DNA from: Trichoplax adhaerens
Lineage: Eukaryota > Animalia > Placozoa
DNA length: 64,000 bases
NCBI RefSeq assembly: GCF_000150275.1
Contig: NW_002060958.1
Location: 464,374 to 528,373, forward strand
Direction: 5' to 3'
The notes under the pieces are model-generated. The model made no database searches. It saw only the letters and a program-made list of their open reading frames with translations, and was not told the DNA's origin. A program made the translations under genes and the position numbers. Positions 2,753-53,730 of this stretch are shown one piece after another. Every line of letters begins with the position of its first letter. Within the stretch, counting starts at the first letter, position 1.

Positions 2753-3203
2753 TTGATTCTATATTGCTTGATCGTCCTTACGGTATAAGGGCGTAATTCA
2801 GTAGGACTTTAAGTATACGAGGTTAGCATCTAGACCAGAAGGGTCTATAGCAACGACAAAAAGTAATTCTCAGCAAAGAATTCCCCATGGGGTCTGGCTT
2901 CATGCCGTTGTAGTTATTGTTATTACAAAGGACTGCCTACTTAACAGTAACCGTTGAACTAATAGATTGTAAAGAATGTTGATCTTTTTATTCTTAACGA
3001 TAATCGGGATACACCGTTTGTAAAATACTGAATGGACGTCGTTAGATAATTTTATCCTCGTTAGAGCACCATAACATTCTCAATGTAACTGCAAGTTCGC
3101 GGCTTAGGCTAGAAATAATTGGCTAATCAATATTATAGAAACTGACATAAGAGATCAATCTCAATCTTGGCTGTTTAATTAAAGAAGTCATTGCGGACCA
3201 AAA

Positions 3204-13566: not shown

Positions 13567-15000
13567 GAGGAATACTCATTTCCGGAACATCCTTTACAAT
13601 CATGCCAGGAGTTTCAGTTAATTGATTACAAATAATTCAAATTTTATGCCTAGTGTAATTATACTATAAATATCTAACTGATAACTGGAACAGAACGGCT
13701 TTATTGGTTGGTGTAAGATAATTATTGCTCTATTTCTAAACTAATTAAACAACATTCGTATAGTATACGCAGGATTTTGTGAGGCTAAGGTATTCAGATG
13801 TCTATCTTGGCACATGTCAGCAGATGTTATAATGCAAAGAGAAAATGGTAGATATAACCTGTATTGTAACTCGTCTCGGGTATGCAGAATTGAAACTTTA
13901 CAGTATTATCTAACCTGTTAAATAATGTTCTCGTTGTCCGATAGTATCAGAACGTATTTTGCTGCTCAGCTATAGTATCGAAGCCTTTGAAAAATGATTT
14001 TCTTAGTATCATTTTAAAGATGGTTGTTATTTTCACCGTCAGAAGGCAAATAACGAACAGGAATCTATTAAATTATTTGAACTAGCGACATTGTAGTTGT
14101 GAAAGCAATATTACTTCTGATCTGTACATGATATCATAATAACTCATCGCATAATGTATGTAATATTAATCCCACGGTAAAATGTATATAAATTTTCGAC
14201 TTCTAAATCACTTTATTAAATAGTAGTGTATCAACTGGTTTGTTGTATATTAATCCAATGCAAGGCCGATTTAGGCTAATTAATTTAAAAATGATCAAAG
14301 CTTTTTTTATTAAATAAAAGTCAGATTTAATTTATCCATTTTGCTAGGAATAATTATGTAATATTAGTCCATCTAATAAATCTGGAAAAGTAAGTCAGAA
14401 AGTATTTATTCCATCTATACAGAAAACAAGGATAAATAAAGAAATCAATTGAAGGTTGAAGTAATCTAGTAAGAAATTCTACTATAATATTCCTGTGCGT
14501 AACACATAGAATTTCAGAAGTTGAACGTTTGATATCGAAATCGAATCATTTTTATTATGACGCAAAATGCTATATAGTAACGAATTTAGTTAACAAACCA
14601 TGGATCGAATAGCAAGTATGAATGTAAGCTATAACGTAACTGCTTGATTTGGATTTGAAACTAATACAGACTGCCATCTTGATGTTGTAATATAGAACTA
14701 CTTCCAGCCTTACAGTATCTAGTCACACAAGGACATTAGGCCTCTCTGTAGTGGTTAAAAGAATCTATTACTTAAAAAATATTACCGTTAAATTTTACCG
14801 TAGTAGAACTTAAATTGACGCACTTACACACCTACACGCCTAGCTTAAGGTTATCGACCCACTCCCACTCCAAGGAGTTTTATACATTCCTAGAAAGGAT
14901 TAATGATAAACATGTTTTCCCAATCCCTATTTCAATCAGTTCAACTAAGATCTTATTTTTGCTTCCTATACTATTCCTTATTCAAATTTATATTTAATAT

Positions 15001-19368: not shown

Positions 19369-20223
19369 GCTATAGCTCTAAAGACATTCGTCATGGCTAC
19401 CGAATTGGGTATTTACAACTGGATTCACTTCAAACTATATCAAGGTACAACCTATGTAATGTAATCCGACTAATTTTAAGTTGGATTTTAGCCTATTGGT
19501 CAGAATCGATCAGAACATTCAAGAGCTGCTGTAGTTAATATCACGATGGGTTGAAATAGTTATACCGCCTAACAGTTATCGGAAAGTCTATTTAGTCATC
19601 CTAGGATGATATTTATTAAAGCTTAATAGTCGAATTTTGAACCTTCGACTTCATTCATGCACTCGTATTCAATTTGTCAAGACTGACAGCAAAATTTTAC
19701 CCATGAAATTATGAAATAACCAGAAATTAGCATATTATGCGCATCAAGATAGCCGTATAAACATCATATCAAAGCCAACCTTCGATAATATAGATATATA
19801 TGCTGTTTAAATAAAGTTTGCTATAATTGTTTACTAGTGCGATAAACTCTAAAGTTTATCTATTTTTCGATATTTAAAACATGAATATCATTCAATTCGT
19901 GCCTAAAATTTTAAAATAATCAAAAAATTGATATATTTTTAAAGGCGAATTGCTATGTTTTGGTCCTTATTATATCGCTCTTCGATCATATCGCTTGTCA
20001 AGATGAGGTATAATGGCTAAAATTAATATCACCTTGTCATTACTTTGAACTTAGAAAATGGCCAATGGAGCAAATTCACATTTAAGGCTTGTTACTCTAC
20101 AACATAATAATCCAAAAGTATACGATCTCATTCAAACACAGAAGTTATCTATTACGAACAGAACATGGTTATTTATTTATTGTTGGGGAGACATTGCACT
20201 ATAATTGCGTGATTTAAAGCTTA

Positions 20224-20500
20224 TGGATTCTATTTTTTTAAATTCCAGTAGCTTACATCTTGACATTTCTTGGAGATTGATAGCACTGATATTTCATGAA
20301 ATTAAAACATCAAGGAGCTTAATCCAAAATTAAGAAGGCATTTAGTTTGTTAGTATTCGTATTATCGTTTTCGGATTCCGTTCTTTTAATTCGAGTAGCT
20401 TGTATGCTCTAGCATTTCAAAAACTTGAAAGAGTTTAATCCAAAATCATGTACGCATTTGATTTGTAGGCTTTCATATTGTCGTTTACAATCATATTTCC
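20224..20500. repeat. Decayed local duplication, 2-3 copies
   Basis: GATTC...TTTTAAATTC(C/G)AGTAGCTT...CATTTC...GAG(C/T)TTAATCCAAAAT...GCATTT..TTTGT recurs at about 20226 and 20374. Confidence 0.5.
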
Positions 20501-23500
20501 TTTTTATTTCATCGCCATCCAATTTTAAATTTAAAAGATTTATTCTTTAATCATGGTGCAGTGATAATATACCCAAATTTTTGAAGACTTACGATTCTGA
20601 TGCTTCATAAAATTTGCGGAGCTAATAACGGTTAATTAAATAAACCTGCAGTTACTGTTTCTACGCTGTTATTTTATACTGTAATATACTGCGATTCCAT
20701 GTTACCGTTTGGAACTGAAGACCAGCTATTTCATGAAAAGCATTCATGCATACATAATTTTCAGGTATAAAATACCGATATAGTAAAGCAAAATTGAATC
20801 TGTCATCTTGTTTATGGCCAGACGGACTTATTGCATCTTATTACACATTTCATGTATTCAATCTCGGATAACAATTCATGCAATTTATTTCTTGTATTAA
20901 ACCTTACTCGTTTCTTACGGTAGACTTATCATATCGATTCTTACAATATGTTAAGGATCAACCTCCTGTATCTAAAGCTTATTTTAATCATGGCAAACAA
21001 TTTTCTAAAATATATGGTAGTAGCGATCAATTACTTTAGTAGAGAAATCAATCTTTATGACTCAAAATTAATATTTCAATATAGAATAGAAGGTGTATAC
21101 CATGTAATAGCTTCAAAACTTTTTCATTAAATACAATACATAAACAAGATTTTATTTACAAACAAACTTAAATGGCTAAAGGTAAGCTTTCTAAAGCAAA
21201 TTATATGTTGTTGTCATTTTTTATATGAGAGGCTGACATTGGCTAAGATTAAAATCATCAATTACTAGACTTCTTCGCTTCCAATGTGAATTTTGTATAA
21301 GGTATCAATGGATAAACGTTTCCTATTATTTCGAAATACTAATTAATCGAAAGTCCTAGGTTAAATTGTTTATATTTTATTGAATAGCTCATCTCAATTT
21401 ATTGCCTTCTCGAATAAATAAGATGATGCATACAATGTGACTACTATAATAAATACTATAACAGCTTGACTTTTTAGAATGTTTTTGTCTAGGAAAGCTT
21501 TTGTATAACGGTAGTTTACAAATGAAATACTTGACGTGATTTAATTTGATCCTCAATCAGTAAAATTTGTCAATCAATAATTTTTGTTTTGAATGTCATG
21601 TCATATAGCTATGGCGTATTTACAAAGCATGTAAAATCATTTGATCTATAATCTATTTTGTATTTTTCCACTATGCACGTATATCGTAGTTTCTTAGCTA
21701 TACAAGCCAATTTTTACTTCTTTTAATTCATGCATTTCTTAGCTATTTCATAGAAAGCGATTAATACATCTTTCATCATCAAAAATATATGCGTGATATA
21801 TTGAGCCGCTTTAATCATACTTATTATTGTATCAATCTTTCATCGCTTTCCACTTAGTATTTATAATAAGATTTTGAAAACGACATTGATAATCTACTCT
21901 TTATTTTAACAATAATATGCTTAAGCATTCGAGTTATGTCGATTTTCATCATTTTGGTGTCTTACAAAGGTTGGATTGAATATCAGATTTTCAAATACGA
22001 CGACCATCTGAAATTTCGTACTGACCCAAATAAGAAAAACTATTCTTTAAATGAACGCTTTGTATAGTAAATTCGAATAAATTTTTAAGCATGCTATTAT
22101 TTGTTCCAGATTTGCACTGGGATCTAAGTTGATGTCAAATCATTACTGCTAGCCCTTCTGAGATCATACTGAGTAAGGAATTTAATGTCGTAAAGAGCTT
22201 ACATTGACGTATACTTACCTAGACAGATTTTAGTAACAAAATCATAAATGATGTTTACTTATGATGAGGTTTAACGCAGTAATTTAAATTACTTGAGAGA
22301 GGGTAGTAACTTATTAAGTTATTTAAAAATAGTAGTAGGGCAATTAATACTGCAAGTAAACAGAATCCTGGCGGACAGAATAATTGAAATCAGCTACGCT
22401 AATATTTCGTGAACAGTTGACTAGATTCTCTAACTATCCTATGATACAAAAATAGAAGCTTAGAGTATATAAATTCTAATCCAAGAAAATTCATAGGAAA
22501 GATTTAATACGCGATAGGTAAATTATCGCCATTATTAGAATTTTTTGTCTGGATGAACAGAAACTGATGTCACTGCATGTCCTTTAATATCTTGCTAAGA
22601 TTACAATCATCGACCGATCGGGATCATATGTACTTAAAATACTTCACGCTCAAAAATGGTGTCAGATTTTACCAGATATTCGATATTCCACACGCCACTT
22701 TGTTTAGATTACCCAAATTTAAAAAAAATTAGTGTCAAAATCACCAATCACAATGCTTCCTTAAATTTCGATGACAACGATTATGGAAAATTAAAGCTTT
22801 TCTTATTTACTCGGTCTACTATGCTATACTTGAAAAATTGTAAGGTATCTTTATTGATAAAAAAATTTCGTTTAAGTATTTTTATTTACTTCAAATCTTG
22901 CGGAAATAAATTATATCATATAGGCTTTGAACATGCAATGATTTTGACATTAAACGTGCGTTTTGAAAACATGGTTGAGAGCTTAGTAATAGTGCGTAGT
23001 ACAGCCGTGTAATGTAGAATAGATAGTTAAAGCTTTTAAAGTAATTACACATTAGCGCTCGAAGTTATTCATGACCTGAAATAATTTCTCTTAATTTTCT
23101 AAATGGGTCATGACATAATTAGTTTTAATCTTACTTTAAATGAGGCTAACATTATTTTCGGTCAGTTATCAAAACAATGACTCGCATGTTGGCATATTTC
23201 ATGATGGAAATCAGAAATTATTAATTAAATCGCTATTAGAGATTCACCTCTTCTTTATAAGCTTGATAATTTGGCAGCATACCTTCGGATATTTAATACA
23301 AACTATAAAAGAATAGCTTATTCTTTAAACTTCATTTTAGGTTGGCAACAAGAAATCATCCGTGGTTTTCAAATGTATGAAGTGCAATTCAATTTTACTA
23401 AAATGTAGTTTCCAAAGCTATGCAGTTGTAAAAGACACTAAAGCTCTTTACACTTATATGCTTTCTCTATTTTCATTATTAAAAAGAGCGAAAGTTCGTC

Positions 23501-26500
23501 GTTATTCATTAGTAACTATAGTTACGAAACAGGAGATCATGCTTGAATATCGTGTCGCAGTTATGCTGATTATTAGATAACTGATTAAGCGGAAATAGCG
23601 TTTCCATCAAACTTCCTCAGGAAAACATCTGCGTCTCACAAATAAATATATAATATAGAATTAATTAGATACCAGCAGATTTAATCAGAATTTAGCGTTA
23701 TCATTACCAAGGGCATGAGAGACAATTATGCACAGGCGTGTTATTAATTCTTAACTTACATCGTACAGTATGTTAGTTTGCATATCATAACTAATCATTA
23801 CTACTATAAACTCCGAACCTTAGACTTGATAGTAAAAGGTGTGGTAGAATTAGGCTGCTGGGAAAAGAAACTCTAAAAAAATTACTAGTTTAATTATGTG
23901 GCCTAATAATGACGAGTACCTTGCAATATATGGGCTATACTGTTGGTACAGAATCTGTTACTTACTTTCTGTTCAACAACTTATTAGTTTAAATTAACCA
24001 GCGATGCATAGCAATAGCAAATGTCCTAAAATTTTAAACTATCTTGAATATTTTACCGTAATAATAATAGTATAAATTGATCTAATTAGAAAAGAAACAT
24101 CCTATTTGCTTATCTAAATAAAAGGATGTAGCAATATCTTCAGGATGATAACAAGTATATAGCGTGTTCAAATTAATTACTAGTGGTTATGCCTTTTCAA
24201 CTATTACTATCCTATGATTTAGAATATTATATTTTAATTAATTTCTATGCTACTACCGAAACACTATTATCAAGAAATGACAATTCTTTTATTTATTTGA
24301 ATTGCAAATATCTATAGCTCACTACACAATACCATAACTCAATTTAATTTCAACCGTTGCGTTAATAGAATTATTAAACAATGTAATTTTAACTAATTAT
24401 GGTATTTTATTCACATGAACTATAATGGAAGCTGTATCTGCATTAATTTAATCGTAATTAGTTATGAGCGTAACATTTAATAATATTCAAGGTATCCACT
24501 GTCCAATTTACCGTAGATCAGAAAAAGTTAGATTCGGTATTCGTAGATAATAACGGCTGTTACTTCAGATATAAAAGACTTTTAAAATATTTATTTTACT
24601 TTTGGTTAGTAATTTATCAGGTGGTCTATCCTGTTATTTATTTGTTCACATTCGTGACTTGACTGTAGTAATGTAGAAAGACTAAATGTCATACTGGAAG
24701 GTTGGCAGAGAGAAAGTACAATTCAGATTGCAGTATAATTATTCTTATATACGATGATACCGTATATCGTCGATATCTTTTAGGACTGAACGTAATTTAG
24801 TGCTAGGGATTCGCCAATGCAGGTATCCGTATAAAGGGAGAAATTCGGTCTCATTTCCTTAGAAAGTACATGAAGAACGGTAATGCTGGTACGTTAAGAT
24901 AACCGTAACTGCCGTAAATTCGATTTAAATTGCTTTACTTTATTAATTACATTAAAGTATACTGATAAGTGGATATAAATTGCTTTTTCTTAGATTGTAT
25001 GCCATTTCGAAATTTTATGTATTTTTCTGACACGATTAAATTGAATATCTTCTAACTAATTCTGTACTTGTAGTTTTTTGACTGTTATAGTTAGTTATAA
25101 AATTAATCGATACATATATGCAAAAAGTACTGACTAACTTAAATCCTGTAACACTTACTGCATGAATAGTATCGAATCGCGTACCTATATCAACATGTTT
25201 TTGTAATTTATGGCATGCGAGTATTTGTCGTATTTGTAGCAGTTGTATCGGTTATGCCCGATCGGCTTGCTGTATTTTGATGAGTGACTGGAATAACTTG
25301 GATTTTTCATCTTTCAAATTGCTAAACTTACTTGCGGCCAAGAAGTGGCATATATAGAAAAATTAGTATCTAGTATATTTTTCGTAAATTAACCTTACAG
25401 ATATAAAAAACCTTCTATTACGCATTAAAATTTTTGCATATTATCTACCGTGATTATAGATAGAGCTTTTTTTCGTAATATTATTAAAAGTAGTTTTAAT
25501 TAGTGTTGGCATAGCTGATGCTTATATATGACATCAAATCGAGCAAAATTCATTCTCTATACTTTAACTACAGCAAGAGAAAGTGCACCATGATTGTAAC
25601 ATCCTGATGATCAGCTTTTAATAAGTATTTAAGTTTTACGGTAGACCTTACGCAAGTATGACGTGGGCATAATTTTGAAAACAATTATAACACAATCCAT
25701 TTGCTTAACTGATCTGCCGTTTCATTATAAACGTAAAATAAGTGCCAAAGGGCACTTTTATACCCTTTAATGGTATTTGAGATATTGTAAATGTCAATCT
25801 TAAATATAGAGATGTAAAATTATCTCTATGGTCATAAATTATCACAATATTAGAGGGTAGGACGCTAAGTTGTGGCTACTAGGAAACAACCACATGGCGT
25901 TGCTGGAGGTCTCCCAATCTTTACTGTATGGGTAAATTACCGTACAGAATAATCTTCTCTTTTTGGATACTGTGTATATCTATGTTGTAACTTTAACGAA
26001 AATGTAGTTACATGCCCAATCGATGATTTAACAGTGTTTTACAATTTAGATATACTACTGCATATCTTACAATAATTTAATACCACAATTACTAGCGATT
26101 TTCACATGATCCATAGTAGTCAGTACTCTTACACATACTCTTTTGTCTAATCTATTGATTTATTCTGAAACTATAAAGCGAAAATATTGCTAATATGGAA
26201 TAGCGATAACCAAACTATGGGTAACAATATATAGAAACCAGAGATTTTATAAATGTACTAAGACTAAGAATAGTCTCCTAATTAAAATCATTTACTAAAG
26301 TTATATTATGTTCACATTGGAGACGCTATTGGTTTTAACAGTAAACTGTTAGCTACCAGCTATATAATATGCCCATTTGCTAACTTAAATACCTTTACCT
26401 TTACATTTATTAATAAAACTATAATACGATCAAGTTGGTTTAAACCAGGTAGCTAACAGAAATCGAAATTAGGAAATGAAACTTTCGGTACTGATAAATT

Positions 26501-27991
26501 AAGCTTATTGAGAAAGCTCTGGATTAGGTCTATACGATTCAAATTGATTTTATCGGCCGTGAAAGTGAAAAAGTATCTCATCTACTACAACCTTTAATTA
26601 GAAAAATTACCTGAAAATGTAAATAATTTTACATGTTATAAATCATACGAATTATATGTGTTTACTTTCAAAAGATTAATGATTAAATGATACATATCTC
26701 TTAATAAATTGAATTTATTACGATACGTAATTGATTTAAGAAAAATAGCTTCGTGCAGTTTAGACTCCATCTGATTTATTAATTATTTCTATCTTTAATA
26801 GTTACTATCGTAGAATCTAATTTACTGCTTTTTCCTTCAAATCTACCGGGCGTATTACCGTTCATTAATAAGAGATATAATTGCTTCGGTGACGTAATAG
26901 TAATTAATGATATTGATAATAATAATAAATAGGAAAAATTTTTTATGCATTTATTTATTGCAAAATATGTAATATCGAACGGTAAATATGCATGAAAAAT
27001 TTTTCTCACTAATGAGACAATGATGTATTATCTATAAAATCTAAAATTGCAGCTCTTTAAAATTTCATTTAAGAATTGGCTACAATCGACAATAAAAACT
27101 TGTGTAACAGAAAAAAGTAAATGATGCTGCCTAGTTACCCTTTCACGCAATAAAGCTTGTTTAAATATTAGTAAAATGATATGTAGCTGATATACTAGAG
27201 ATCATTGCTACGCTAATACTTCGTGATATATGGCTTATAAACTAGAGGTCATTGCTATACTACTAATTTGACTAAAATACCTTAATAATATCATTATCGT
27301 ACCAGATTGGGCCATAACAAAATATGTAAAGTTTGAGGATATACCGGTAGGGAGTAATCCTAAATTGAATCTATATTCGTATAAACGTTCATTTACGAGA
27401 CAATTGACGTGTTAGAGCGATAAGAAATATAGAACTTAATGCAATCGCATCGAACAATATCTGTAAATCGAAATATTTTTAGATCATAAGTCTATTTTTT
27501 TACCCAGGCTAATGTCAAATTTGGGTACATTTTAGCAATTATGTTCATATCACAGTTTCAATACTTTCGTTATATGTAAATACGGTACTAATATAGCATT
27601 AAACGTAATAAGTTCGACAAGGTTTCGTCATATTCATATCGTAGCTATTGCGATGAAATCGATTTAATTCTAATGACGTGCATCATATATTGCCATTCAA
27701 CATAATGCAATTCTTAGGCACCTTGATCGAGTATCGAAGGTTTGTTAGGGTGCGGTAATAATTTTTAGTCCACAATTTGTTAAGCTCTTAAAAACCTATT
27801 TAGAACCAGTTTGTAATAAAAAGAGTTAACCTGTGTCAACTAATTTATTTCTAGAAGATTGGTTCTAAACTAAATTGCTTCCAGCTATCGAAATTGATAA
27901 TAGCCTAAAAGCCTCTTTTAAGCCGTGTGGATCTTGCCTGATTTGAACGCTTTTTCTAAAATTAATTATTTTCTATTCTTGATTGGCGAAG

Positions 27992-28942
27992 ATGCTTTAT
28001 TTAAAATATAACAGCACTTCCTATAGGATAGAATACATTAGTAAAGAATTTAACATCTTATCCGTTACATTTTCAATTACTGCAATTGTTAGTAATATAA
28101 TAATTATTATTTTACTATTAAGTCGACCCTCTCTAAAAGTTCCAAGCTGGGCAATTACGTGTAGCTCTTGCTTTGCAGGCATTTTACTTGCAATGTCACA
28201 CGTAGCTAGTGGCTCAACAACTATCTTCACTGCTGGTCCCTTACAATCTATTCTAGTAGGATGCATTTTTGATGCAATAATGCATTTAACTGCTGAAGCT
28301 ATCTATAATATCCATATTGCATTTCTTAGCCTAGAGAGATTTTATGCAGTCATTTATCCATTTAAATATCGACGTATAGCATCGAAGGCGAACATTGCCA
28401 AACTTTTACTGGCAGTTTGGATTCTGCCTATTCTTTTTCTTCTGCTTCCAGTTAAGATTGCTGCGTATGTATATTGTAAATGCTGCCTCAATTGGTTTCG
28501 AATTCCAGTGATTAGAACGATTATGCTGTATTGTGCCGTGCCAATTCTCTACTTCCTACCGCCTGTTATTACAGTCTTAGTTTACGCTATTATTTTATGG
28601 CAACTTCATCGGAAAATTAATAGTCATGTATCTCCTGATTGCGCCCACTCTCATAAGCGAAAGATTAAATCTTACATACAAAATAGAAAGGCTATAATTC
28701 AAGCATTTATAATTGTATGTTTTTACGCTTTAACTTTTATTCCGGTTGTAATTTTCGCTTATATTATAACTTCTAAAAATTATTACCGACTGATGATTCC
28801 CTTTTTTACGAGTTCATTGATGATAATTGTATTCTTAAACATACATCCAATATTCATCATTTGTTTTAATGCGTCCTTGAAGGCAGAAGCGAAAACTAAA
28901 TTTCAACATTGGTTTATACCTTGCCAAATCAATACCTCTTAA
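27992..28942 (+). CDS. Rhodopsin-like (class A) GPCR, single coding exon, paralog of 18328-19368
   Basis: First ATG is at 27992 (the ORF track starts at an upstream TTG). It shares CSSC in TM2, LSLERFYAVIYPFKYRR, YFLPP, TFIP and IHPIF with the upstream GPCR. Confidence 0.92.
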   Translation: MLYLKYNSTSYRIEYISKEFNILSVTFSITAIVSNIIIIILLLSRPSLKVPSWAITCSSCFAGILLAMSHVASGSTTIFTAGPLQSILVGCIFDAIMHLTAEAIYNIHIAFLSLERFYAVIYPFKYRRIASKANIAKLLLAVWILPILFLLLPVKIAAYVYCKCCLNWFRIPVIRTIMLYCAVPILYFLPPVITVLVYAIILWQLHRKINSHVSPDCAHSHKRKIKSYIQNRKAIIQAFIIVCFYALTFIPVVIFAYIITSKNYYRLMIPFFTSSLMIIVFLNIHPIFIICFNASLKAEAKTKFQHWFIPCQINTS

Positions 28943-31914
28943 GCTACTGGTTGCTAATTTGCTTTTATGACTTTCTTTACAGAGCACATTATTGCCTAAC
29001 AAACAGTTGAGCCCTATCGTAGTAAATATAAATTCCCTAAATGATATCGGAATAGCGTATCGTCTTTATTTACAACAATTGTATTTTATCATATTACTAT
29101 AAAAAATATCGCGATCAGAGATATGTAACCTTATAAAATGGAGCTAATACTGTATAAAATGATTAATAAAGATAACACGACATCTAAAATTTCAGAATAG
29201 GATGGCTTTTACCTTAAATATATACAATATTGATGGTAAAAGAAGTAGTATAGGAACTGATGACAATCTTTGTTGAAATCAAACCAGCGAACAAACAGGA
29301 TGTTAAGGTTATGAACTTTTAGTAGATAATGCGTATTTAAATTTCGTAGTCACTAGCTAAATAGCAAGTTTATTGCTATCATTGTATAAATTGGTGTATA
29401 TTACTGGTCAGCCATTAGCTTCACGACGAATTATTTGTAGATTATTCTTACTGCAAGTAAAATGCTATACCGGCAAGAAAACATCAAATCTGAACAGAAG
29501 AATATAAAGATACAAAAGCAGCGATATTCAGTATACAAAAATATTTTTAATTCTTATTAGTTGCCTAATATTATATCTAATTATAGATTACAAACAGTTC
29601 AAAATTTCACTTTTAGAATCCATGTGTTCTCAAAGTGATCCTTTATTCCACCGTAGCATATTGTATAATAATAAATATATTGCATACCTCATACAAGGTT
29701 CATAACTATGCGATCTATATTATAATATACAGCTGTTATCAATTTTTGACAGCGTAAATTTTGTAATATTCAGTATTATTGTGAAATCCAATACAGGTTA
29801 AATAGCAAGATCACAAACTGAAATTACTGACGTAGCTATGGCTAGAGTACTTTCATCCGAAATACTTACAGTACAGTACGTACACTTTGCATGAGCCCTA
29901 CCTGCTACCACACACTTTGTATGCAAGCATTTACCAATTCCAAATCAGTCCAAGTAGCCTTTTAACCCGCTGCTTTACTGGCAGTGTGCTTGTATTTTTG
30001 CATATGCGTACAAAAACAATCCATCGATTGATCATCACATCCTCGTTTTATACGCATATTTCGAATTGAAGATTCCTTTTTAGTTAGTTAGTCGGTTAGA
30101 TAGTCAACTAGTTTTTCAATTGATATTTAATTGTAAAGACTATAATCTTGGGTGCCGAGATTTCTTCAGTATTAAATGATAGTAAATCTCTGACTTTCTC
30201 GTCTACACTATCTGTGACGCTATAATTATACCATAGTATTCGGTCGTTGGAACTGAATTATTTGGTGATATAGCTAATCTCGCCTCTTAAGTTAGTAAGT
30301 GGCGTTCTCCGCAAGGATTGGCGTGTGTAGACTAATTTGTCACTAGTGGTGTGCGACACGAATACACGATGGTGGTCATGACAGTAACACTAGCTTTGGC
30401 AGGTCAGTCCCCTGATGCAAGCATGATTCATTTACTCTGTTCTATTAGTAAACAGAATGGCTAGTTTTTTTATTCACGCGTTGATGAAACATAACGCCAT
30501 ATGTAAGTGTTTCGGATGAAAGTACTCTACTAGTAGTCATAGGATTGATTTGGGATGCAGTAGTGTAGAGTTACTGTTCCAAATTTTCCATGAAAGTATT
30601 GTGCTGTACAGTACAGTACAATGGATGGGTACAATTAAATGACTTGCTATACAGTAGAATTGAGGTGGGATTAGTGCTTGCATAAAAGGCAAACAAGTTC
30701 CAGATCATACTACTGTTATATATATATATATTGTAGTTTTAAATTACAAAATACCATGAAGCAACCGAACCTTTCTCAGGTCTAGTCTTATCAAATTCTG
30801 GATACCTGTCAAAGCATAGCCAATGACTTGATGTACTTTGCTGCATACCAGCTTTGTTGCTAACAATGTATTATTAAATAAATATAAAAGCCCACAGTTG
30901 TATCAAGATAAATCGATACCAATTACATCAATATCATTGTCATCCGAATAGATTAGCAAATATACTAGTGCTACAGCTGTAAGACTTATTCTCCGATGAC
31001 GTTAAATCCATTCTCAAAGAGAGACAATTACAATTATACTGTAAGTTACACTGAGGAATGATTCAGTCGTGAGTGGGCTGCCAGATAGGGAGTTTAAATT
31101 TTTCGATCTTATATACGAGCAGTACAAAAGGCAACCATCTTGTGGTAAGTCTATGCTTCTTAATATATACGCAAGAAAAGTAGTAACTATCCCCATGCCA
31201 TCTTTGTGTAACTTGCAAATCAGTGTCCCAGAAAGGACAAAGCTAGCAGATCACATCACTAGGAAAGATGACAGTGAGCTACTGTTGATTGCTACCTAGT
31301 TAGAATTTGCTTACAAAGTTTACTGACCTCGAATACGTCAATATAAACTATTATCGAGAGTCTATAAACAAGGATCACAGTTACAGTAGCATCATACACT
31401 TGTTTATGCAGCAACTAAAATTCAGATACTGCATGACATGACGCAGATCAAGCGCAATTCATCACAGCTGTTCCAATCGGTTATGTCTACCGTAGAAAAT
31501 CAGCACGCTTACATCATTAAGGAATGTTTAATCTAGAAATTTAATCAAGATATTGATAACTTAACTTAATAATCACCATCAGCGTCTTAACAATGCACTC
31601 TATCAATGAGACAAGCTAAATAATAGAAATAGTATACAGTAGAGTACAAATGAGTCCAAAAACAGTAAGAAACAAATAAAATTTGCTGTATTTTGATAAC
31701 ATGTTAAGAATTTTGAGTCAGTAGCCCTTCCAGCATTATATTAAAAACTCCTAACATCAAAAATCTTGAAAAAAGACAACACAGTTTGTATGAATAGGTA
31801 ACGTCAAACAGTATTCAACAATAAATGTTGACAACCTTTATGTTATATCATTGGTAATTAATCAGTTATTACACTAGTACAAATACAATAAGAATACCTA
31901 GTTTTTTTTTAAAT

Positions 31915-34075
31915 TTAGATAGTGGCTAAATAATCTTTTACTTCGGATGGTGATAGTCGATTAAAGCCACTAGAATTAACCACTCCAATTTCAATGTTGT
32001 CTTCTGTCATTTGACCATCGAAACTTTCCTATCCAATAAAATATCAATTCGGTAGACAAAGTTAAAATTTTCTGCAAATACGCGTATATCTTTTTCATCC
32101 TCTATCGCGACATACCTTTAACGTTAAAATGGCCGTGTGGATAGCATCTTCTAGTTCCATTTCTTCGTTATACCTTGAAGTAGAAACATAAGTCATAGAA
32201 CGTTTTAATGAATACTCTAAGACGTGTCTATCGGCGATGCAAGAAAGTCTAGTGACGATTATCCTACCGTTTCTCTAAGAATGTTTTACCATTAACATGA
32301 TTTTTTCCAAGAGCTGTAGCTTTCCAAGCAAAGAATGCACCCTAAATAAAGGTTGATAAATCTTTCATGCACAAATTTCGATTTGAATTATACTTTGTAA
32401 GAACAAGTATCGAAACGTACCGATGGATCGCACTGATAAAGATATGGCCCTTCATCACCAGTTCCAGCCATTAAAAGAGATACACCAAAAGGCCTTACAC
32501 CACTAAATAAATACATGTAATTTCGTAAGCCTACACGATTGGTAATATCATTTTAACGTAAGCCTAAACTCTTAATATTGTAAGATTTAGTATCAAACCC
32601 GGATTGAGTATATTCTTGCATGACTGATGCAACTTTTTCTACCAATTGTGACGTTGGAATAGAATCTTGGTACTTCATTTGATATTCCTGGGCCAATTTA
32701 CGAGCTTTACGTAACAGAACCCTAATATGTAATATCATTGCAAGAACAGAAGGATATTTACGTTGGTATGGCTTACAAAATACAACCGGTTTGAGTCAAT
32801 GCTACGAAATGAACTATTCAAGATCGATTCTACAGTATACGCCAAATTGCATCGCAATAGTAGCGGGAATCTACTACTAACAACTACTGGAAGCATCACT
32901 GTAGCAGTTGTTTCGTTAAATGGATGCTTCCGTTGTGATGAAATGATGTAAATCGTGTTGCCTGGATAAAGAGCTAATGTAAGACAGTAAAGCCTTATCC
33001 ACAGGTTGCGAACTGCATTTTACGTACCTATAATCGGGTCCCATTCCACTGTACACCATACCAATTTTATCAGTTATTCTAGCGACCTAAGTGTATATAT
33101 CAAAAATGGACAACAATCTTTTATTTCAACCATGAGTACAGACGAATTAGTAAAACTATGGCTATACTCCTCTCTCATTAGAATTTCTGGTAATAATAGC
33201 AAAGTCGTACGTAACAATCCCTTTTCAACATGTACAATATCAATCCCGTCATTGAAATTGAATACATTACCTTATGAGTACTATTTTCATCGTATAGTTG
33301 AGATTTATATTTTTTTTCCGTGGCTAAAACGGCACCATTGGCAACTATTCAGGCATATTGTATTTAATATATCAGTCATTGTAATATGGCGTTGAATGTT
33401 CAATCAAATGCTGTGCACCTTTATGTAGGTAACAGCTTATCGACATTATGAAAGAGTTTGGAAGGAAGGGATTTATCCAAAGAGAATACATTACTTATTT
33501 ATCTTACCTTTAATACCAATGGAGGGACTGCCGGCAGCAACTGCTGCTAAAGCATATTCAATTTGTACAAGTTTACCGGATGGACTATAATAAAATAATC
33601 ATTGAAAGCAAGATTGAATTATTTTTCGATCCTATTCCTTATCTAGTCGCATACGCATTTTGTCGATACGATCCTATTCACATCGAATCCAATCTACTTC
33701 ATGAACGATAAAGCTTTAATACATTCAAGTGGACTCATAAAAAGTCCGTAGAGGTCTTAGAGGATATTTACTATGATCAACTGACGGCTCGAATGACTGT
33801 TGTGCTCCAAACTGCAAGCACCCGGTATGATATAGAAACTTTGTCAAGACACAGTATAACACAAAGAGAATTGGACGAGTCGTTCTACTCGTCTATGTAT
33901 CCATTTGTGCCTTGATAGGCTCAATAAAACTTATTAAAAGCATTTACTAATCATTGTAGAAAAGATGCTTAAGAATTCAATCAAACATTTACTTCTAATT
34001 TACCATGGAAAGTCTATCAAATGGAGTTCAAAATTACCTGAAGGTAGTTAAACTGAAGCTGTAGCGTTCGGACAT
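31915..34075 (-). CDS. PSMA2: Proteasome subunit alpha type-2, multi-exon
   Basis: Exon 1 (34075-34038) reads [13 protein letters not shown]; later exons give [40 protein letters not shown]...[41 protein letters not shown] and [11 protein letters not shown]...VKDYLATI*. Confidence 0.97.
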
Positions 34076-34831
34076 GACGAAGCAAGACGATTGTATGTTC
34101 ACTTTGCCTCAATGCTTCAACGTGAGATCACTTTAATCCACCGTCACTAACGGCTCAGCGGTACTAGTAGTCTACTCCTACTATCGTTCAAGACAGTCGT
34201 GTCGGTATGGCAGCAAGCACTGACCGTGACCAAGAGGGACATGGTGCATGCGCACAAATCCTGGCATTCTTGTTCTATACAGTCACAGTACTTTCTCCTC
34301 GACAGACATACTGTACACTGTACAGTACGTCTAGTGTAAGACAACATTTTATTTTGGAGAAGTCCGTTTGAAACAAAAGTCCGTTAACAGTAGCTAACTA
34401 TAGTGGGTAAAAATTGAAACTCAAGGATTTCTTTCATACCCAACCGATTAAGGTTTAACTAAAAAATGGCTAGGGAATCTTAACGAAAATCAACTAAGAA
34501 ATACGCACTAAGAAAGTTGAACTTTCATGGTACAGTAGTGTACAGTACTGTACTACTAGTACACTGAGTACAGTCCATGCTGAACGCGCATGTGCTCGAA
34601 GTTAAACAGTCTCTTTCTACAGTGTACAGTGGACGGTACTGTAGTCCACTGTACTGTACTGTACCCTTTCGCGACGTGTCGTAACGGTTCGCCAGCGTCT
34701 GAAGTTTTAGTCTGGCTGGACTTGAGCATACTGAGCTGCTCAGACACACCTACTGCACTTTAAAATTGTTTTGCTTGCAGTCGGTTGCAGCCATTCCATA
34801 ATCCACATCGATAATTTCCATCCACTCAATC
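34076..34831. promoter_or_regulatory. Bidirectional promoter region between PSMA2 and HIBADH, containing TACAGTA/TACTGTA-rich tracts
   Basis: Divergent start codons about 0.75 kb apart; higher GC and CpG content; NRF1-like GTGCATGCGCA (about 34244) and CGCGCATGTGC (about 34585); motif tracts at about 34308-34338 and 34529-34665. Confidence 0.7.
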
Positions 34832-37800
34832 ATGGCTTACTTGTTAAGGGAAGTCGGTAGGAATAACAGCAAAGTGACCAGCAGCTGTAGGTTAATCAAG
34901 CGCTGTATATCAGGTAACTTTACCTTCATCCTTAAAATCTTCTATACGAGTAAACTGTTCACTGCAGTCTCATCTCGCCCAAACCTTGTACAAAATTCGG
35001 GCACCTTTCCGATTCTTCATGCAAAATTGACGATGCCTCTTTTAGTGACTACCGTAGCAACTCTCTCAGGGTCTCTAGCAGTCACTGAAGAGCTGGGGGT
35101 TAATGTTTTTATCTGATACTCGAGAGTAAACTGTATTGATCTGATAAACTGCTTATTGTGGCGCTGTTATCAATGCATAGTCTTGAGAGTAGTCATGCTA
35201 TACGCCTATAACGTAGTTCATTAGCATATTGCAAAGGATTATGCTTCTGTAATATAAGTATCCTTGGTATACTGTACATTCGTATTGCTACCAGGTTATC
35301 TTGTATTTCGAGCAAGACGTATACGCGTACGTATGCTGAAGGACTTATCAACGCTTCATTAATTGAATCAAATTGATGCTACCCTGCTCTAAGTAAAAGA
35401 CTACTGTAATCAAATGCAATTGTGTGCTGTTCACTCATTGATTACATACCGTCGATTACAACATACGCTAGCAAATACGTGTATTATTACGGTGTATGGT
35501 ATATCGTTGCTATACTTAATCTGCACTATTCTGATCGTACACATCTTCAAAACTCCATTCAATACCTTACTAACTATTGGCTGACAGCTCAATCTTGTCT
35601 GATCAAATCATGTACAGAGCTCAGTGACAAGTGAGCGATGATGCTAAATGGCTGGAGTTATTTATTAAACATTGTATGATCCACGCACTATTATAGCACA
35701 TACAATGTACATGTTGGTCTCGTTTATGGTATAGACTTATTTTATCATGTTATCTTTTTCTACTAGGATCCAGCATCAAAAACAAGGTAAATTCGTGTCT
35801 GTCTCTGCAAGTTCAAATTCTACCGTCAATACTATCACCAGAAACAAGACATAACTTTACATTTCAGCTACACGAATACATCACCTGTGTCAAATTCATG
35901 TTATTGTAATCGCCTTATGCTAAGTTATTTATTTTTACTATAAAACTAAACGTTAAAGTCACAGTCGGAAACGGTAGTTGTTACAGCAAAATTGTAAACA
36001 AAGCCTAGACAGTGCCTTGAGTAGCTGCGATTGTACGTATTCGAGATCTGAATAGAGAATTAGGCTTCTTTAAAGCAGTGATGTAACAAAAGCTGTATAT
36101 CTACCAACAACGTCTCACGATAGTCAAGCTCTGTACTACAATACTCTACAGTTACAGTTGTATGCTAACGGTAAAATTGAATACAATACTTGAAAATAAT
36201 AGATAATGAATTGCACTTTAGGATATTGGCTTTATCGGCTTGGGCAACATGGGCGCTTCTATGGCGAGAAATTTAATGAAAAATGGCCATAAAGTCATTG
36301 TTAACGATGTAGTACCTGAATCAGTCAGCGCTTTGAAAAATGACGGTGCTGAAGTTGCTCAAACTGCAGCAGAGTTAGCTAGCAGAACATCAACTATTGT
36401 GACAATGTTGCCATCAAATCCTCATGTACGTGAAGTTTATACCGGCAGTAATGGATTGTTTAGGTAAGTTTTGCATTAAATTGAGATGAAGTTCAATAGA
36501 GCATCGCTATTACACTGTCATTCAAGCTCCATGGATGTTAGTACTTTGCAGATCAAATTTTGTGGTATTAGTGACCATGGATATTGATAACTAGTCAATG
36601 CATGCTTTCATTTGTTGGGTGACATGATTACGTCAATCAAGTGTAGCTTCGTTCAGTTAATGTACAGGAGACAGGTAGAATGGCTAGAGTCGGAGAAAAA
36701 TGATTGCATTATGAACTAGCTCTGATTTGGTTAAGAAATTTGTGCTCTACTTTCTTACATAGTACTGCAAGCCAAGATTCCTTATTCATTGATAGTAGTA
36801 CAATCGATCCGGCTGTATCACAAGAAATGGCTGCAATAGCTTCCGAAAAAGGAAGTACTTTTATGGACGCTCCAGTTTCTGGAGGTACAACTGTTTCTTC
36901 ATATATTGAAATACCGTACTTTTATTTTATTACAGTTGGTTCACATCGTTGATAAGTGATTGCAGATATTGTGTCCATCAGTACAATGTCGTCAAAAATT
37001 TATGCTAGGAAAAGTTTAAAAATAGCTTTTTAATTCCCGTAAATAGGAGTTGTAGCGGCTCGCGATGCGTTATTAACATTTATGGTTGGAGGCCCGGAAG
37101 AAAAGTTTGATGAAGTTAAGAGTATATTAGATTGCATGGGGAAAAATATTGTTCACTGTGGCAAAGTTGGAACCGGACAAGCATCAAAAATTTGTAACAA
37201 TATGCTTTTGGCTATTGGCATGATTGGAACATCTGAAACAATGAACTTAGGAATAAGGTAGCTTATAACCACTGCCTAGTTCGTCGTCGAAATTATTGTA
37301 AATTTATTGTTGCATTTTCTGATTGATGTCATAATCACTCTGTGATACCATAATCCTTCGATAGCAGATCTTAGGGATCATTTACCCAATTCAAAGCGAA
37401 CAGATTATTGTTGATATTTCATTAGTTCATAGTAATGCGTTTCTTTCCAGTACACTAGCGAACGTAAATTTTAATATCAAATGGATAACAAATGTTTTTA
37501 CTATCTACAAAAGGCTCGGCCTAGATCCAAAATTGCTGGCAAAAATTCTTAACATGAGCTCAGGTAGATGCTGGTCTAGCGAGGTATATAATCCATGCCC
37601 AGGAGTAATTGAAGGTATTCCATCCAGTAACAATTATGAAGGTGGATTCGGAACTGCTCTAATGACCAAGGTTTGACTTATACTAAAGTATTTCTACTCA
37701 CTCTTTATGGATGTCACTGAAATATTTTAGTAGTTTAGCCAGGCAATTGTTATAAAATAGATTGCAAACTCCAATGTCTAATCTCTTACGGGAATGATTG

Positions 37801-37979
37801 GGTCATTTGATTATGATCTATTGCAGGATCTAGGTTTGGCTCAGAGTGCTGCAAACGCTACGAATTCTCCTACGCCCTTAGGATCTCTTGCCCATCAGCT
37901 GTATCGCGTACTATGTAACAATGGCTATGGGAAGAAAGACTTTTCAGTAGTATTTCAAACTTTAAAAGAAGAAGAATAG
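34832..37979 (+). CDS. HIBADH: 3-hydroxyisobutyrate dehydrogenase, mitochondrial, multi-exon
   Basis: Basic transit-peptide exon 34832-34913, a 20-nt micro-exon 35767-35786, then from 36222 [11 protein letters not shown] (Rossmann fold). Further motifs: [50 protein letters not shown] and DLGLAQ...KDFS. Confidence 0.96.
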
Positions 37980-39088
37980 AAGCTGATCAATCAAAATCAC
38001 AGAAATGCTGCTTCAAAAGGTTTCCGATAAGAGAAATTCATGCAGGATCTCACTTAGCTAATATCTAACAAATTCTTTTTCAACTATCAAGCGTCCTTAC
38101 GTTATACAGTTTGCTCTTATTACATGTAGATTGTAAGCTAATAATTTGGCCATTAGGATTTATGGACATTGTTTATTTTGATGGTACTTTGAGAATAGTT
38201 GAAGCAGATATTCCAGATATAAATTTGAAGTATTTGAGGAATAAATGTATAACGACGAACTTTATGACTCTTTGAATGATTTCAATGGCATTTTCTGCAT
38301 TTCAGAATAACAACGTATGCTGCTACAGCATTGTTTGCCTATATAAGATTGTATCGATTTATTACAGCATTCTATCTTTTTTGCATTGTATTACACGCTC
38401 AGAAAGTTTTATCAACGTAGGTAAGCTGAAATGCGAGTCTAACAACGCCATCTTTCATTACATAGTCGAATCTGCTCTGTACAGTATGCTGTACAATGCA
38501 TGATACATTTGGACAAGCTTTTGATGAATCTATTGCATGATGAAATACTGTAGTATTGAACGAATAGAATAATGCTATCAATGTGACAAGTATCCATTGT
38601 ACGCACACATAGAAAATGGCCATTCCAACAATCTAGTTGATATTGTTATAGTTGTAGTAGAATAATATAAGAGATGCCTATACAAATTATTTCTTGTCAA
38701 TAGCTGCTTAAGTTAACGCATTCACCATGTGAAAGACCACGAACTCGGCAAACTACAGTACTTTTATCGAAATTATACATGTAGTTCTTGTGCGCCATAA
38801 GAGGTTCGTTTGATTTCAGTCCTATAAAGTGAAGACACCGAAATTGATTAGTAATGCAAGCAAAAGCGATAGAGTACAGTATAGCCATTTTGAGTTTATT
38901 CTCATTGTATAACAATTTCAACATTGCAAATCTCCTCTAATTTTACAAGTGTTTGTAAAGTGTAGCTGAGCACAAGTTGTATATTGATACTACAGCTCTT
39001 ATTTGTATTTCGATTCATGTTTGCAGTGTAAAATAGTCCTATGGAGCAACTTTACCAAATGAGCAGTTATCTATAAAGCTAGCCAAGA

Positions 39089-39582
39089 TTAGTAGAGGCT
39101 CAAATCTGTACTGTCGATACGTAACACACTGTCTTTAGTGTCTTGCAATCTCGGTGGTACTGTCTGAAAAGATTGCACGTCCACTTACTATAGTATCTTG
39201 TAAGATGGCGTACTAAGATTCCTCTTATGATGGAAACTACTAAGCGTCAACGTTGTTGATTGACTAGCTAGCTATACCCGTATATAGCTGTATTCGTAAT
39301 CACTCCAGAGCTATCCTACTGGACTTGATTGGATCCTAGTCACTGTACAGTTACTACGTATGTTGGCGAATATCCATGGGTGAAATGGGAAGTAAGAAAG
39401 ATGCGTAAATATGCCAGCGTACTTACATCGACTTTACTTAAAACTTTGTTAGCACGGCGTCGTTCCAACACATCATAAGAAGCGCGTGATAAGATGTAAC
39501 CACTATAGACGGTTAGTAGAATTAGCGAAAAGGTTACTCCACGTTGGACCTTGGTTAGGAAAGGTATCGGCCGAGTAGCCAT
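39089..39582 (-). CDS. COX14: COX14-like single-pass mitochondrial microprotein (cytochrome c oxidase assembly), probably two exons
   Basis: Exon 1 (39582-39427) MATRPIPFLTKVQRGVTFSLILLTVYSGYILSRASYDVLERRRANKVLSKVD resembles the COX14 core (..LLTVYGGY....R) and ends at a GTAAGT donor. Candidate exon 2 (39163-39089, after TTTTCAG) reads TVPPRLQDTKDSVLRIDSTDLSLY*. Confidence 0.7.
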
Positions 39583-39654
39583 TTTTGTAGGTTGGCAATT
39601 ATGGACGAATGCAACAGACCGGTCCCGGTACAGACCTGACGATAGCGGTTGACG

Positions 39655-39830
39655 CAGTGTACCCGTCATACTGTACACTGTACAGTACTCTTTTTTACGG
39701 TGGATTCTGTTCTGTTCCTTTTTCAGTACTGTACACTGTACATTGTACGGTACAGTATTTTTTTCGGTTGGTGTACAGTACCTCGTACTCTATTGGGCAG
39801 GGCAGTGTACTGTACACTGTACACTGTGTC
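39655..39830. repeat. Dense TACAGTA/TACTGTA/TACACTGTA tract upstream of the COX14-like gene (putative nested Tc1/mariner footprints)
   Basis: Examples: CATACTGTACACTGTACAGTAC, CAGTACTGTACACTGTACATTGTACGGTACAGTA and GTGTACTGTACACTGTACACTGTG. Confidence 0.6.
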
Positions 39831-39892
39831 ATTCGGACCTCCTCAATTTCTGAGCTAAATACTGTCTCAGAAACTCCCAGTAAAAACTTTCA

Positions 39893-40578
39893 GCATCAAA
39901 AACATTGCGAGAAACGGAGGGATTTGCAGTTGCACTTTTGTGGTCATCAATCTTTATTGAAGATTGCAAAAGTTCGATGATCAACTGTCTTGAAAGAAGC
40001 GACTATCCCTATGTCAGGTCTATCCCTACCTGACAATGACCGTGTACAGTAGAGTAAGCAGTTTACTCGTCATACTGTGCTCTACATATTGGACATGTAT
40101 TCAAGGCCTTCTGAATTTCTAGGAAAAAGAGACAACAGACTGATCAAAGATATTGCGAAAAACGGGCGGGGGAAAGATTTGCAGTTGCAGTCCTGTTATC
40201 GTCAATCTTTCTTTATTTAGGATTGCAAAGTTCGATGATATTCTGTCTTGGAAGAAGCAACTATCCCTATATCAGGTCTATCAGACAACAGACTGATCAA
40301 AGACATTGCGAAAAAACGGGCGGGGGGAAGGATTTGCAGTTGCAGTCCTGTCATCGTCAATCTTTCTTTATTTAGGATTGCAAAGTTCGATGATATTCTG
40401 TCTTGGAAGAAGCAACTATCCCTATGTCAGGTCTATCAGACAACAGACTGATCAAAGACATTGCGAAAAACGGGCGGGGGGAAGGATTTGCAGTTGCAGT
40501 CCTGTCATCGTCAATCTTTCTTTATTTAGGATTGCAAAAGTTCGATGATAAACTGTCCTGGAAGAAGCAACTATCCCT
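39893..40578. repeat. Tandem repeat: three near-identical 153-155 bp copies plus one diverged upstream copy
   Basis: GACAACAGACTGATCAAAGA(C/T)ATTGCGAAAAACGGGCGGGGG...GAAGAAGCAACTATCCCT starts at 40131, 40284 and 40439; a diverged copy lies at about 39893-40025. Confidence 0.95.
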
Positions 40579-40593
40579 GATAGTAGAGGATGG

Positions 40594-41750
40594 TTACAGG
40601 ACTGTCATTGATTTGGTTACCGAGTAGAGTATTGTGCCGACACAAGTGTAGTTCAAGACTACTTTTGAACACCGCTGCAATGTTCAAAGTGCCGCTAATA
40701 GGCCGTAGTTGTAGTTGGAAGTTCTTTCAGGTGCCTTTCGGTCAGGACATTTGCCAATGTGGACCACGGCTATGGCGCATAGAGTGTTACTGCTAAAAGT
40801 AGTCAATGTCGATCTCTTGAATAACTTTATACAGTAGCCCACAACGAATGGTGTCCTTGTCGTACACCTGTACAGGCACGCCTCTGATAGCCTGTTGAGA
40901 TGAGAACGATGACCAAACTAATTTAGCGTGTTGTAATCCTTGATTCTGTTTTTGGACCCAAGAGGCATGTTGAATTTTCTCCCAGCACCAACAACATCGA
41001 TCGATCAATGTCAGAAAGCATTTTCTCTCTTTGGCTTTCGCTGAAACATCTGCTTGTGGATACTGTATAGAGAGAGAAGAGAGAGATAGATGGAATAGTT
41101 ACAACATGTAGAGCAATCACTTTCCAACGGGATAGATCCGTCTGCAGACTGTAGTATGCTTTGATTGATGCCTTCACGGAATGCAACTGTCCTGTCAACA
41201 TAGCCACCACTGCCATGGTATGCAGAATGCGCCCTAAATCACACCAACGCAAAGGGCAAAAGGCAGCTTTGATCCTTTTCTCATCATCATGTCCATGTTG
41301 ATCTAGTAGTCCATGCTGACTGGATGAGTCATAAACTCCTTGCAAATAAAGTGGACATTCTTTTGTCGACCGGCATGTTGTCCATCCAAGTATCGATCGC
41401 GCATACAGCCAACAGCGATCCATACTACCGTATACAAGTGGATCTTAATGGCGGAAACGTAAGGCCCACAACCATTTGCATACCAATAGACTATTGGATA
41501 AATCAGGCAAATTGCACATCAAAGGCTGTTACTAGCTTATAGTAAAGCAAAGCCTTGTGGCGTTATAGAAGCGAGCGACCTCCCGCGCTGCACTAGAATC
41601 TCCTGAGCGGTCCATATTAACATCCTATTGACGTTGATGACTAACGTTAGCGAATCGACTGGCAGTAAATTGTGGAAAGTTCATCGATCCTACGTTCATT
41701 CTGCAGTGGCAACTTGCCTAGATCACAGTTTAAACGACTAAAAATAACCT
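40594..41750 (-). pseudogene. Degenerate Polinton/Maverick (adintovirus-like) double-jelly-roll major capsid protein gene
   Basis: Joining minus-strand frames across frameshifts gives blocks colinear with my recollection of Polinton MCP: SRLNCDLGKLPLQNERRID; GPL/EILV; TRLCF/YKLVTAFD; VYWYANGCGPYVSAIKIHL; WLYARSILGWTTCRSTKECPLYLQGVYD (about 41330-41410); KRIKAAF...CDLGRILH (about 41220); RKFNMPLGS (40954-40980); QGLQHAKLVWSSFSSQQAIRG; IDIDYF/SSNTLCAIAVV; LRPISGTLNIAAVFKSSL (about 40655-40705); NYTCVGTILYSVTKSMTVL* (stop at 40594). There are no introns and GC is higher than in the flanks. Confidence 0.6.
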
Positions 41751-51999: not shown

Positions 52000-52570
52000 C
52001 CTAGTTTATTTTGGAAACAATTTATTTCATTGACCGCGTTTCCTTAACTATCTATCTCGCGCAGGATAGAGGCCCTGTATCTAAAGTAATTATGCACAAG
52101 TGTAATTTTATGATGACAAGAATTGCTTGCCAATTTTTGCAACCTAGTTTATTTTGGAAAGAATTTATTTTATTGACGGTTTGCTGAACTATCTATCTCG
52201 CGCAGGATAGAGACCCTGTATCTAAAGTGATTAAGCACAAGTGTAATTTTATGATGACAAGAATTGCTTGCCAATTTTTGCAACCTAGTTTATTTTGGAA
52301 AGAATTTATTTTATTGACGGTTTGCTGAACTATCTATCTCGCGCAGGATAGAGACCCTGTATCTAAAGTGATTAAGCACAAGTGTAATTTTGTGATGACA
52401 AGAACTGCTTGCCAATTTTTGCAACCTACAGTAGTTTATTTTGGAAAGAATTTATTTCATTGACGGTTTGCTGAACTATCTATCTCGCGCAGGATAGAGG
52501 CCCTGTATCTAAAGTGATTATGCACAAATGCAATTTTGTGATGACAACCATTGCTTGCCAATTTTTGTAA
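52000..52570. repeat. Tandem repeat, 4 copies of about 141 bp
   Basis: CCTAGTTTATTTTGGAAAGAATTTATT...CTATCTATCTCGCGCAGGATAGAG...GCTTGCCAATTTTTGCAA starts at 52000, 52143, 52284 and 52425. Confidence 0.97.
52427..52433. mobile_element. Tc1/mariner-type excision footprint (TA-CAG-TA)
   Basis: Copies 1-3 of the 141-bp repeat read CCTAGTTT; copy 4 reads CCTACAGTAGTTT, i.e. a duplicated TA plus CAG. Confidence 0.75.
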
Positions 52571-53229: not shown

Positions 53230-53730
53230 ATTGGTTTGAGTGAGATTGTCAAGCCCAAGTGGAGCAATGTTTGAAAAGTCGTCCATGGCCGTGTGCTCTA
53301 TCGGTGTTGTTTTGGGCCGACTACCGCCAATCTGAAGGTGTATTGCCACCCCATGTCTGGGACTCCGTCTGGACACTGTCCAGGTTATTGTCAGTGTCAA
53401 ACAGGTGCAGAGTTTTTCTCTCACAGGTACTCCGTCGTCAGCACTCACTGCCTACTGGATACTGTCCATTGTACTGTAGAGTACAGTACTATGGATGGTG
53501 TCCATAGGTACTGTATCCGAATTGACGCCCACATCCCTGAATGGTCAGTAGGTGACACTCGACCACTGGCGTAACCTGTCCCCACTCTCTTCCATGGCTG
53601 TCTGTCCGAAGACCAAGCTTTGGATGCCCCCCCTCCGTCCACGACTTGAATGCTTGCCAACGTCCAAGACAATAAATTGTGGGTAGAGTACGCATACTAG
53701 TGTTGATTTTCCATACGAAAGGCGTCGTGA
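53230..53730 (+). pseudogene. Degenerate adenain/Ulp1-like (clan CE) maturation protease of a Polinton-like element
   Basis: Frameshifted blocks: GLSE..QVEQCLKSRP; SGH(C) at 53371-53379, where TGT is one substitution from TGG (GHW); QVIVSVK/GAEFFS/TGTP (compare GEYFDSYG.P); ACQRP/KTINCG with Gln codon at 53658 and Cys codon at 53678 (7 codons minus 1 nt, the adenain Q-to-C spacing); then EYA/ILVLIFHTKG. Confidence 0.55.

Follow-up and report, generated by a model that had tools for sequence, protein, structure and literature searches.

Organization of the locus

The window analysed here, a 64-kb (64,000-nucleotide) stretch of the Trichoplax adhaerens genome, carries open frames that match the APAF1-like, laminin-G, 3-hydroxyisobutyrate dehydrogenase and COX14 families. 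Between the laminin-G gene, which ends at 47857, and a long open reading frame at 55729 lies a 141-bp tandem array of 4.0 copies with 94% matches (TRF), whose copies start at 52000, 52143, 52284 and 52425. Pfam returned no match for fifteen short frames, of which 13 surround the array, and Rfam gave none either. The features of the array are:

52000–52142, plus strand: copy 1 of the 141-bp unit (143 bp), starting with CC-TA-G right after the unique flank
52143–52283, plus strand: copy 2, empty site CC-TA-G
52284–52424, plus strand: copy 3, empty site CC-TA-G, 2/141 differences to copy 2
52425–52570, plus strand: copy 4 (146 bp), bearing a 5-base insertion, 9/141 substitutions against either copy 2 or copy 3
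52427–52433, plus strand: TA-CAG-TA, putative excision footprint (gained bases 52429–52433 or, equivalently, 52427–52431)

Copies 1 to 3 start with CCTAGTTT, whereas copy 4 reads CCTACAGTAGTTT at 52425–52437, that is, CC-TACAGTA-G in place of CC-TA-G. Per 141 bases, copy 1 differs from copies 2, 3 and 4 by 8, 10 and 11 substitutions, and copies 2 and 3 differ from each other by 2; copy 3 is a very recent duplicate of copy 2, or possibly the other allele assembled in tandem. The divergence of copy 1 is strongest in its first 50 bases, for which it serves as a local outgroup. Of all indels between repeat copies in the 64-kb window that are at least 90% identical, only the insertion in copy 4 is 5 bases long.

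The 141-bp unit is single-locus at 85% likeness. A dispersed array derived from a MITE or a Helitron was considered and rejected, as partly fitting contigs (0) and loose ends are both absent at that likeness from all four sequencing runs described below. A metagenome scan for the unit found nothing. Further local tandem arrays occupy 1996–2770, 9689–10125 and 39882–40600, with periods of about 152, 105–109 and 155 bp, respectively; the 2000–2750 array contains three 5-base gaps, none of them CAGTA, in alignments of 71–73% identity that are unreliable. Downstream of the 141-bp array, the segment 53240–53850 is GC-richer, with several overlapping open frames, three TACWGTA words (W, A or T) and no Pfam or homologue match; a search with 53275–53571 likewise returned no homologue.

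The insertion in sequencing reads

Contigs of four runs from four studies (among 20 listed; the run labels include X1, X2, X4 and X7) were compared with the window. Contig 23 of run X4 spans 52340–52488 with 0 substitutions and 0 gaps, and since it crosses the site without a difference, the insertion is no assembly error. X4 is perhaps of the window's own lineage, in which case this match tests the assembly and not independence. In run X7, a contig with two linked variants (52416 and 52420) extends to about 52451, and no gap is recorded for it at the insertion site; from the position of this contig end, we infer that a second, divergent haplotype also has the insertion. A sequencing or assembly artefact might be suspected, in that the four-copy state may partly stem from assembly (copies 2 and 3), but for the insertion itself it is refuted by the difference-free X4 contig together with the gapless X7 contig, and we give it a negligible probability. 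As to the array as a whole, crude depths suggest that the sampled runs carry about three copies, so that the four-copy state is perhaps partly an assembly effect; X4 has a coverage gap at 52252–52315, and X1 and X2 are thin at 52124–52187.

Neither a copy 4 with TA only nor one occupied by an element was seen in any of the four runs, which sample few haplotypes and whose contigs drop rare variants, and between 51100 and 53000 none of the runs has loose ends or partly fitting contigs at the site. The haplotype indels in this interval are six (1, 25, 2, 2, 1 and 8 bases) plus one 3-base joint, and CAGTA accounts for 0/7. Relative to the window, X4 has a 25-base insertion at 51726.

A wider interval, 20100–40099, was compared in the same way. 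The CAGTA unit is involved in one of the 12 displayed indels (of 47), inside an existing double unit:

29867–29878, plus strand: double unit TACAGTACAGTA, one unit absent (5-base loss) in an X4 and an X7 contig, as an allele or a paralogue

Paralogous contigs pile up at this 5-base loss. Substitution-rich contigs cross 11 of the 34 TACWGTA sites of the interval without a gap (11/32 listed pieces used), a weak observation given that the contigs are haplotype mosaics. A steady-state estimate predicts just 1–2 polymorphic footprints per 20 kb if the process were ongoing. We note that an X2 contig is exactly five letters longer than the window over 35425–39765, perhaps by one CAGTA-type event or perhaps by several events. 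The read data are compatible with current activity or with its absence, and more than one haplotype shares the insertion.

Direction and age of the change

Copy 1, which serves to root the 5' segment, carries TA only, as do copies 2 and 3; on this basis, a gain in copy 4 requires one event and a loss requires two. By parsimony, therefore, the five bases in copy 4 were likely gained and not lost elsewhere. The weak point of this polarity is that copy 1 has just two homologous bases (CC) before the site, and copies 2 and 3, which differ at 2/141 positions, count as one, so that there are two independent witnesses and not three. If TACAGTA were instead ancestral, a five-base deletion between the two TA microhomologies would have occurred in the other copies. 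The small number of witnesses and the short CC homology of copy 1 speak for such a course, as does the fact that polarity was judged from the copies of the array; yet it requires two losses, or else either a CC present by chance (about 3%) or a conversion tract that ends at most two bases from the edge of the array, and we consider it very unlikely.

The original prediction, made from the window alone, thus holds in part. The change from TA to TACAGTA in one of four copies is confirmed, by the sequence and by the X4 contig. That three sister copies give the ancestral state stands insofar as all read CC-TA-G and a gain is parsimonious, and has to be reduced to two independent witnesses. The activity proposed as recent is not supported: the divergent X7 haplotype also has the insertion, none of the seven haplotype indels around the array is CAGTA, and a TA-only or occupied copy 4 was seen in none of the four runs. 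The event is not very recent: it is younger than the split of copies 3 and 4 (about 6%), and it predates the divergence of two or more of the haplotypes sampled.

Form of the insertion

The TA is duplicated around CAG, and the pre-insertion site, as reconstructed by parsimony, would be a single TA. TACAGTA/TACTGTA is the canonical footprint of Sleeping Beauty as presented in 10.1101/659086, according to which Tc1 itself leaves a 2-base footprint and TACAGTA arises only from members with a 3-base stagger, such as Sleeping Beauty. With three bases between the TAs, the site lacks the 2-base Tc1/Tc3-type form (TACATA/TATGTA). The proposed Tc1-family footprint is thus right in form for Sleeping Beauty and wrong for Tc1 itself. 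From base composition, a 5-base insertion after TA would take the CAGTA or CTGTA form by chance in 0.2% of cases, a figure that rises to 1.9% once the TA duplication is granted. Neither ACAGT nor CAGTA occurs within 230 bp of the insertion on either strand; the adjacent pre-existing unit that slippage would duplicate is thus absent.

These numbers bear on an alternative in which an imperfect duplication of local sequence (a second TAG and two further bases) resembles a footprint by chance, and in which the abundance of the word elsewhere reflects a selected promoter or insulator motif together with microsatellite slippage. An 8-base imperfect local duplication does segregate 440 bp away (52873), and ACAGT arrays are described as promoter-associated (PMC2871265) and ACAGT as a chromatin-folding motif (PMC12817080) in the text available of these reports. 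Against this are the chance of 0.2–1.9% per 5-base insertion, the inability of slippage to begin from a lone TA, and the numbers of solitary and mixed-orientation words given in the next section. We regard this combination as quite unlikely.

The TACAGTA/TACTGTA word in the window

TACAGTA/TACTGTA occurs 76 times in the window, compared with 13.1, 22.1 and 34.5 expected under models of order 1, 2 and 3, respectively; it ranks first among 7-mers under the order-1 and order-2 models, and the excess amounts to about one per kb. Neighbours of TACAGTA that differ in one outer letter number mostly 12–22 (TATAGTA 34, TACAATA 48), and since most of them are far rarer, the enrichment belongs to the complete TA-NNN-TA word and not merely to ACAGT. 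Splice acceptors were rejected as a source of the word, since TACAG is much rarer when other pairs follow it. In the twelve ORF stretches taken as coding, one of the 76 words is found, versus 67 of the 735 remaining TA-NNN-TA words (p = 0.015, Fisher test). This depletion fits an insertion scar but also a selected non-coding motif. The abundance of the word, which had been noticed in the original prediction, is upheld as a specific over-representation that, with the exon depletion, is what an insertion scar would give.

Solitary words make up 43 of the 76. Their flanks are near those of any TA, with p = 0.05 and 0.035 (uncorrected) at the first two positions and no significance beyond, and among all words the centre letter is A or T in a ratio of 44:32 (p = 0.21). 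Where words adjoin, the mixed-orientation joints CTGTACAG (7) and CAGTACTG (4) are as common as same-orientation joints (7), and slippage alone would not yield them. The following cluster lies about 90–230 bases upstream of the ATG at 39582 (minus strand) of the COX14-like gene:

39669–39814, no strand assigned: 6 TACWGTA words in both orientations

Substitution also creates or erases some of the words, because the TACAGTA at 10086 aligns with its sister copies with no indel.

Among words expected of non-canonical footprints, TACATA/TATGTA occurs 74 times versus 86 expected, TATA 638 versus 736, TACGTA 21 versus 17–25, and TACTA/TAGTA 289 versus 223–304, an excess under order 1 only. Over the whole window, TACAGTGTA/TACACTGTA occurs 5 times versus 0.8 expected and TACCGTA/TACGGTA 18 times versus 5.3; these surpluses possibly stem from variant end joining, from decay, or from scars that elements with other ends have left.

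An existing TACAGTA word could also have been the source of the insert, if a break at the TA had been patched from such a word via microhomology (polymerase theta-type or by ectopic copying) with no transposon at the site. Three 12-base matches to the filled site are present in the window (50658, 43943 and 59053), of which that at 50658, 1.77 kb off, agrees on both sides of the insert; three such matches are found for only 2 of the 43 solitary sites, and templates are plentiful. Repair templates are usually local, and no template of at least 6 bases is available within 230 bp. Moreover, templated repair presupposes the word excess without explaining it, and the near-generic flanks of the solitary sites count against it as well. 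We judge this route unlikely.

Search for a donor element

No TA-CAG...CTG-TA element in the 64-kb window survives scrutiny. A CAG-ended candidate at 7234–7393 with an 11-base inverted repeat (matched in 0/150 block shuffles at a span of 300 and in 5/150 at a span of 1000) was rejected as exon-like: its TACAG, located in the APAF1-like gene, is part of a splice-acceptor-like TTTACAG, after which come a 54-codon open frame and a GTAAG donor. The segment, which has no Pfam match, appears from these signals to be an exon. Other pairs of TA-CA and TG-TA ends were set aside as ACAGT clusters pairing with each other. A hairpin of 29 bases at 34625–34653, CAGTGGAC ... GTCCACTG with TA on both outer sides and TACTGTA in the loop, resembles a Tc1-ended shell of minimal size, or else the product of a template switch.

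That TA-flanked elements with terminal inverted repeats (TIRs) are present in the window is shown by a MITE-like one, whose ends are other than CAG:

29843–30529 including TA (29845–30527 without), no strand assigned: TA-flanked element of 683 bp, 26-bp TIRs starting GAG, 27/28 matched including TA

Such a GAG-ended element would predict TAGAGTA scars. The TAGAGTA-type word occurs 20 times in the window versus 12 expected, and ACTCT forms 61 arrays in the counts of PMC2871265, compared with 9 for the equally distant ACACT; this surplus of ACTCT/TAGAGTA is only a hint of GAG-element scars. Inside the element, a high-copy repeat at about 30080–30480 reaches a contig depth of 12,000–15,000 in X1, versus about 60; as estimated from bin means, it starts near a (TTAG)n run and ends near CTAG and a T run. 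A metagenome scan for this repeat near 30180 found nothing.

In T. adhaerens, 11 degenerate Tc1-, Tigger- and mariner-like matches, recorded as coding parts and none with both an ORF and TIRs, three complete single-copy mariner/Tc1 ORFs without TIRs and one MITE family of about 20 copies are listed in the available text of PMC2871265. Kamm et al. (2018, PMC6057997) give TcMar fragments that we sum to 106 and 121, or 6.3 and 7.6 kb per genome, together with 3.8% 'unknown' repeats. Trichoplax transposons are described in both reports as few and inactive. The DNA transposons chiefly annotated here are Ginger elements; their TGT ends and duplications of 4 bp (PMC2836005, available text) do not predict TACAGTA, and they were rejected as the source of the scar. 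Scarcity of elements would be a weak objection, as a few hopping copies can scar a genome without accumulating; yet an ongoing process should leave some intact copies.

Interpretation of the insertion

The reading we favour, as somewhat probable, is that the insertion is the footprint of a CAG-ended cut-and-paste transposon of the Sleeping Beauty type, with no donor found in the 64-kb window. The form is exactly that of the Sleeping Beauty footprint, and the site is a candidate member of that group. A Tc1/mariner-superfamily transposase would have inserted the element, duplicating the TA, and later excision with a 3-base stagger, followed by end joining of the two overhangs, would have left TA-CAG-TA. 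Many such events over a long period would account for the excess of about one TACAGTA/TACTGTA per kb. Each scar would add a TA, and a double unit may then slip, seeding the known (ACAGT)n arrays.

One footprint by itself would be ordinary; the interest of this one comes from a genome described as poor in transposons, and in inactive ones, in which ACAGT is the dominant, promoter-linked repeat. Wang et al. (2010, PMC2871265) counted tandem arrays longer than 12 bp and reported 5,624 (ACAGT)n arrays, 78% of the pentanucleotide repeats of T. adhaerens, with 54% of the ACAGT arrays within 1 kb upstream of genes; the available text of that report proposes a binding site for a transcription factor and gives ACAGT no origin. 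ACAGT was again recovered as a chromatin-folding motif (PMC12817080, available text). We found no paper in the open-access literature that ties ACAGT to excision footprints. A lone unit at a bare TA offers a mechanism for the origin of ACAGT that is testable with existing data: an ongoing process predicts that about 3,000–11,000 indels between haplotypes consist of precisely CAGTA or CTGTA at a TA, or 3–12% of the 88,142–104,313 indels called (PMC6057997, available text). We put forward, tentatively and as something rather less than probable, that the ACAGT motif, dominant in placozoan microsatellites and promoters, is the fossil record of long-continued transposition by a small, overlooked family of CAG-ended cut-and-paste elements. 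The TACAGTA/TACTGTA scars, on the order of 100,000, would be stacked in open chromatin, and the host, whose genome is regarded as nearly transposon-free, may have co-opted them for promoters or insulators.

Comparison with known systems

Like the Sleeping Beauty footprint, the site in copy 4 has, by parsimony, a single TA turned into TA-CAG-TA, and both centre letters are represented among the words of the window. Unlike the Sleeping Beauty case, in which an engineered element excises from a known donor, the putative footprint here has neither a donor in the window nor an occupied allele in the four runs. In cultured cells, more than half of the Sleeping Beauty footprints are non-canonical (10.1101/659086, available text), whereas the non-canonical TACATA class of the window is not in excess. 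With Tc1, Tc3 and mariner footprints, the site shares the TA target and the form of a cut-and-paste scar; these elements retain two bases where the site has three, and TACATA/TATGTA is unenriched in the window.

The (ACAGT)n microsatellite has the same five-letter unit, and arrays and clusters of it also occur in the window, but copy 4 shows a lone unit at a bare TA. A further parallel is a different motif, found at placozoan promoter hubs and tied to Mutator TIRs (Kim et al. 2025, PMC12221973, available text), which is short, comes from a transposon and is enriched at promoters of placozoans. That motif is of the ACGG type and lies inside retained TIRs, whereas ACAGT is listed separately, with no element assigned to it, in the available text of PMC12817080.
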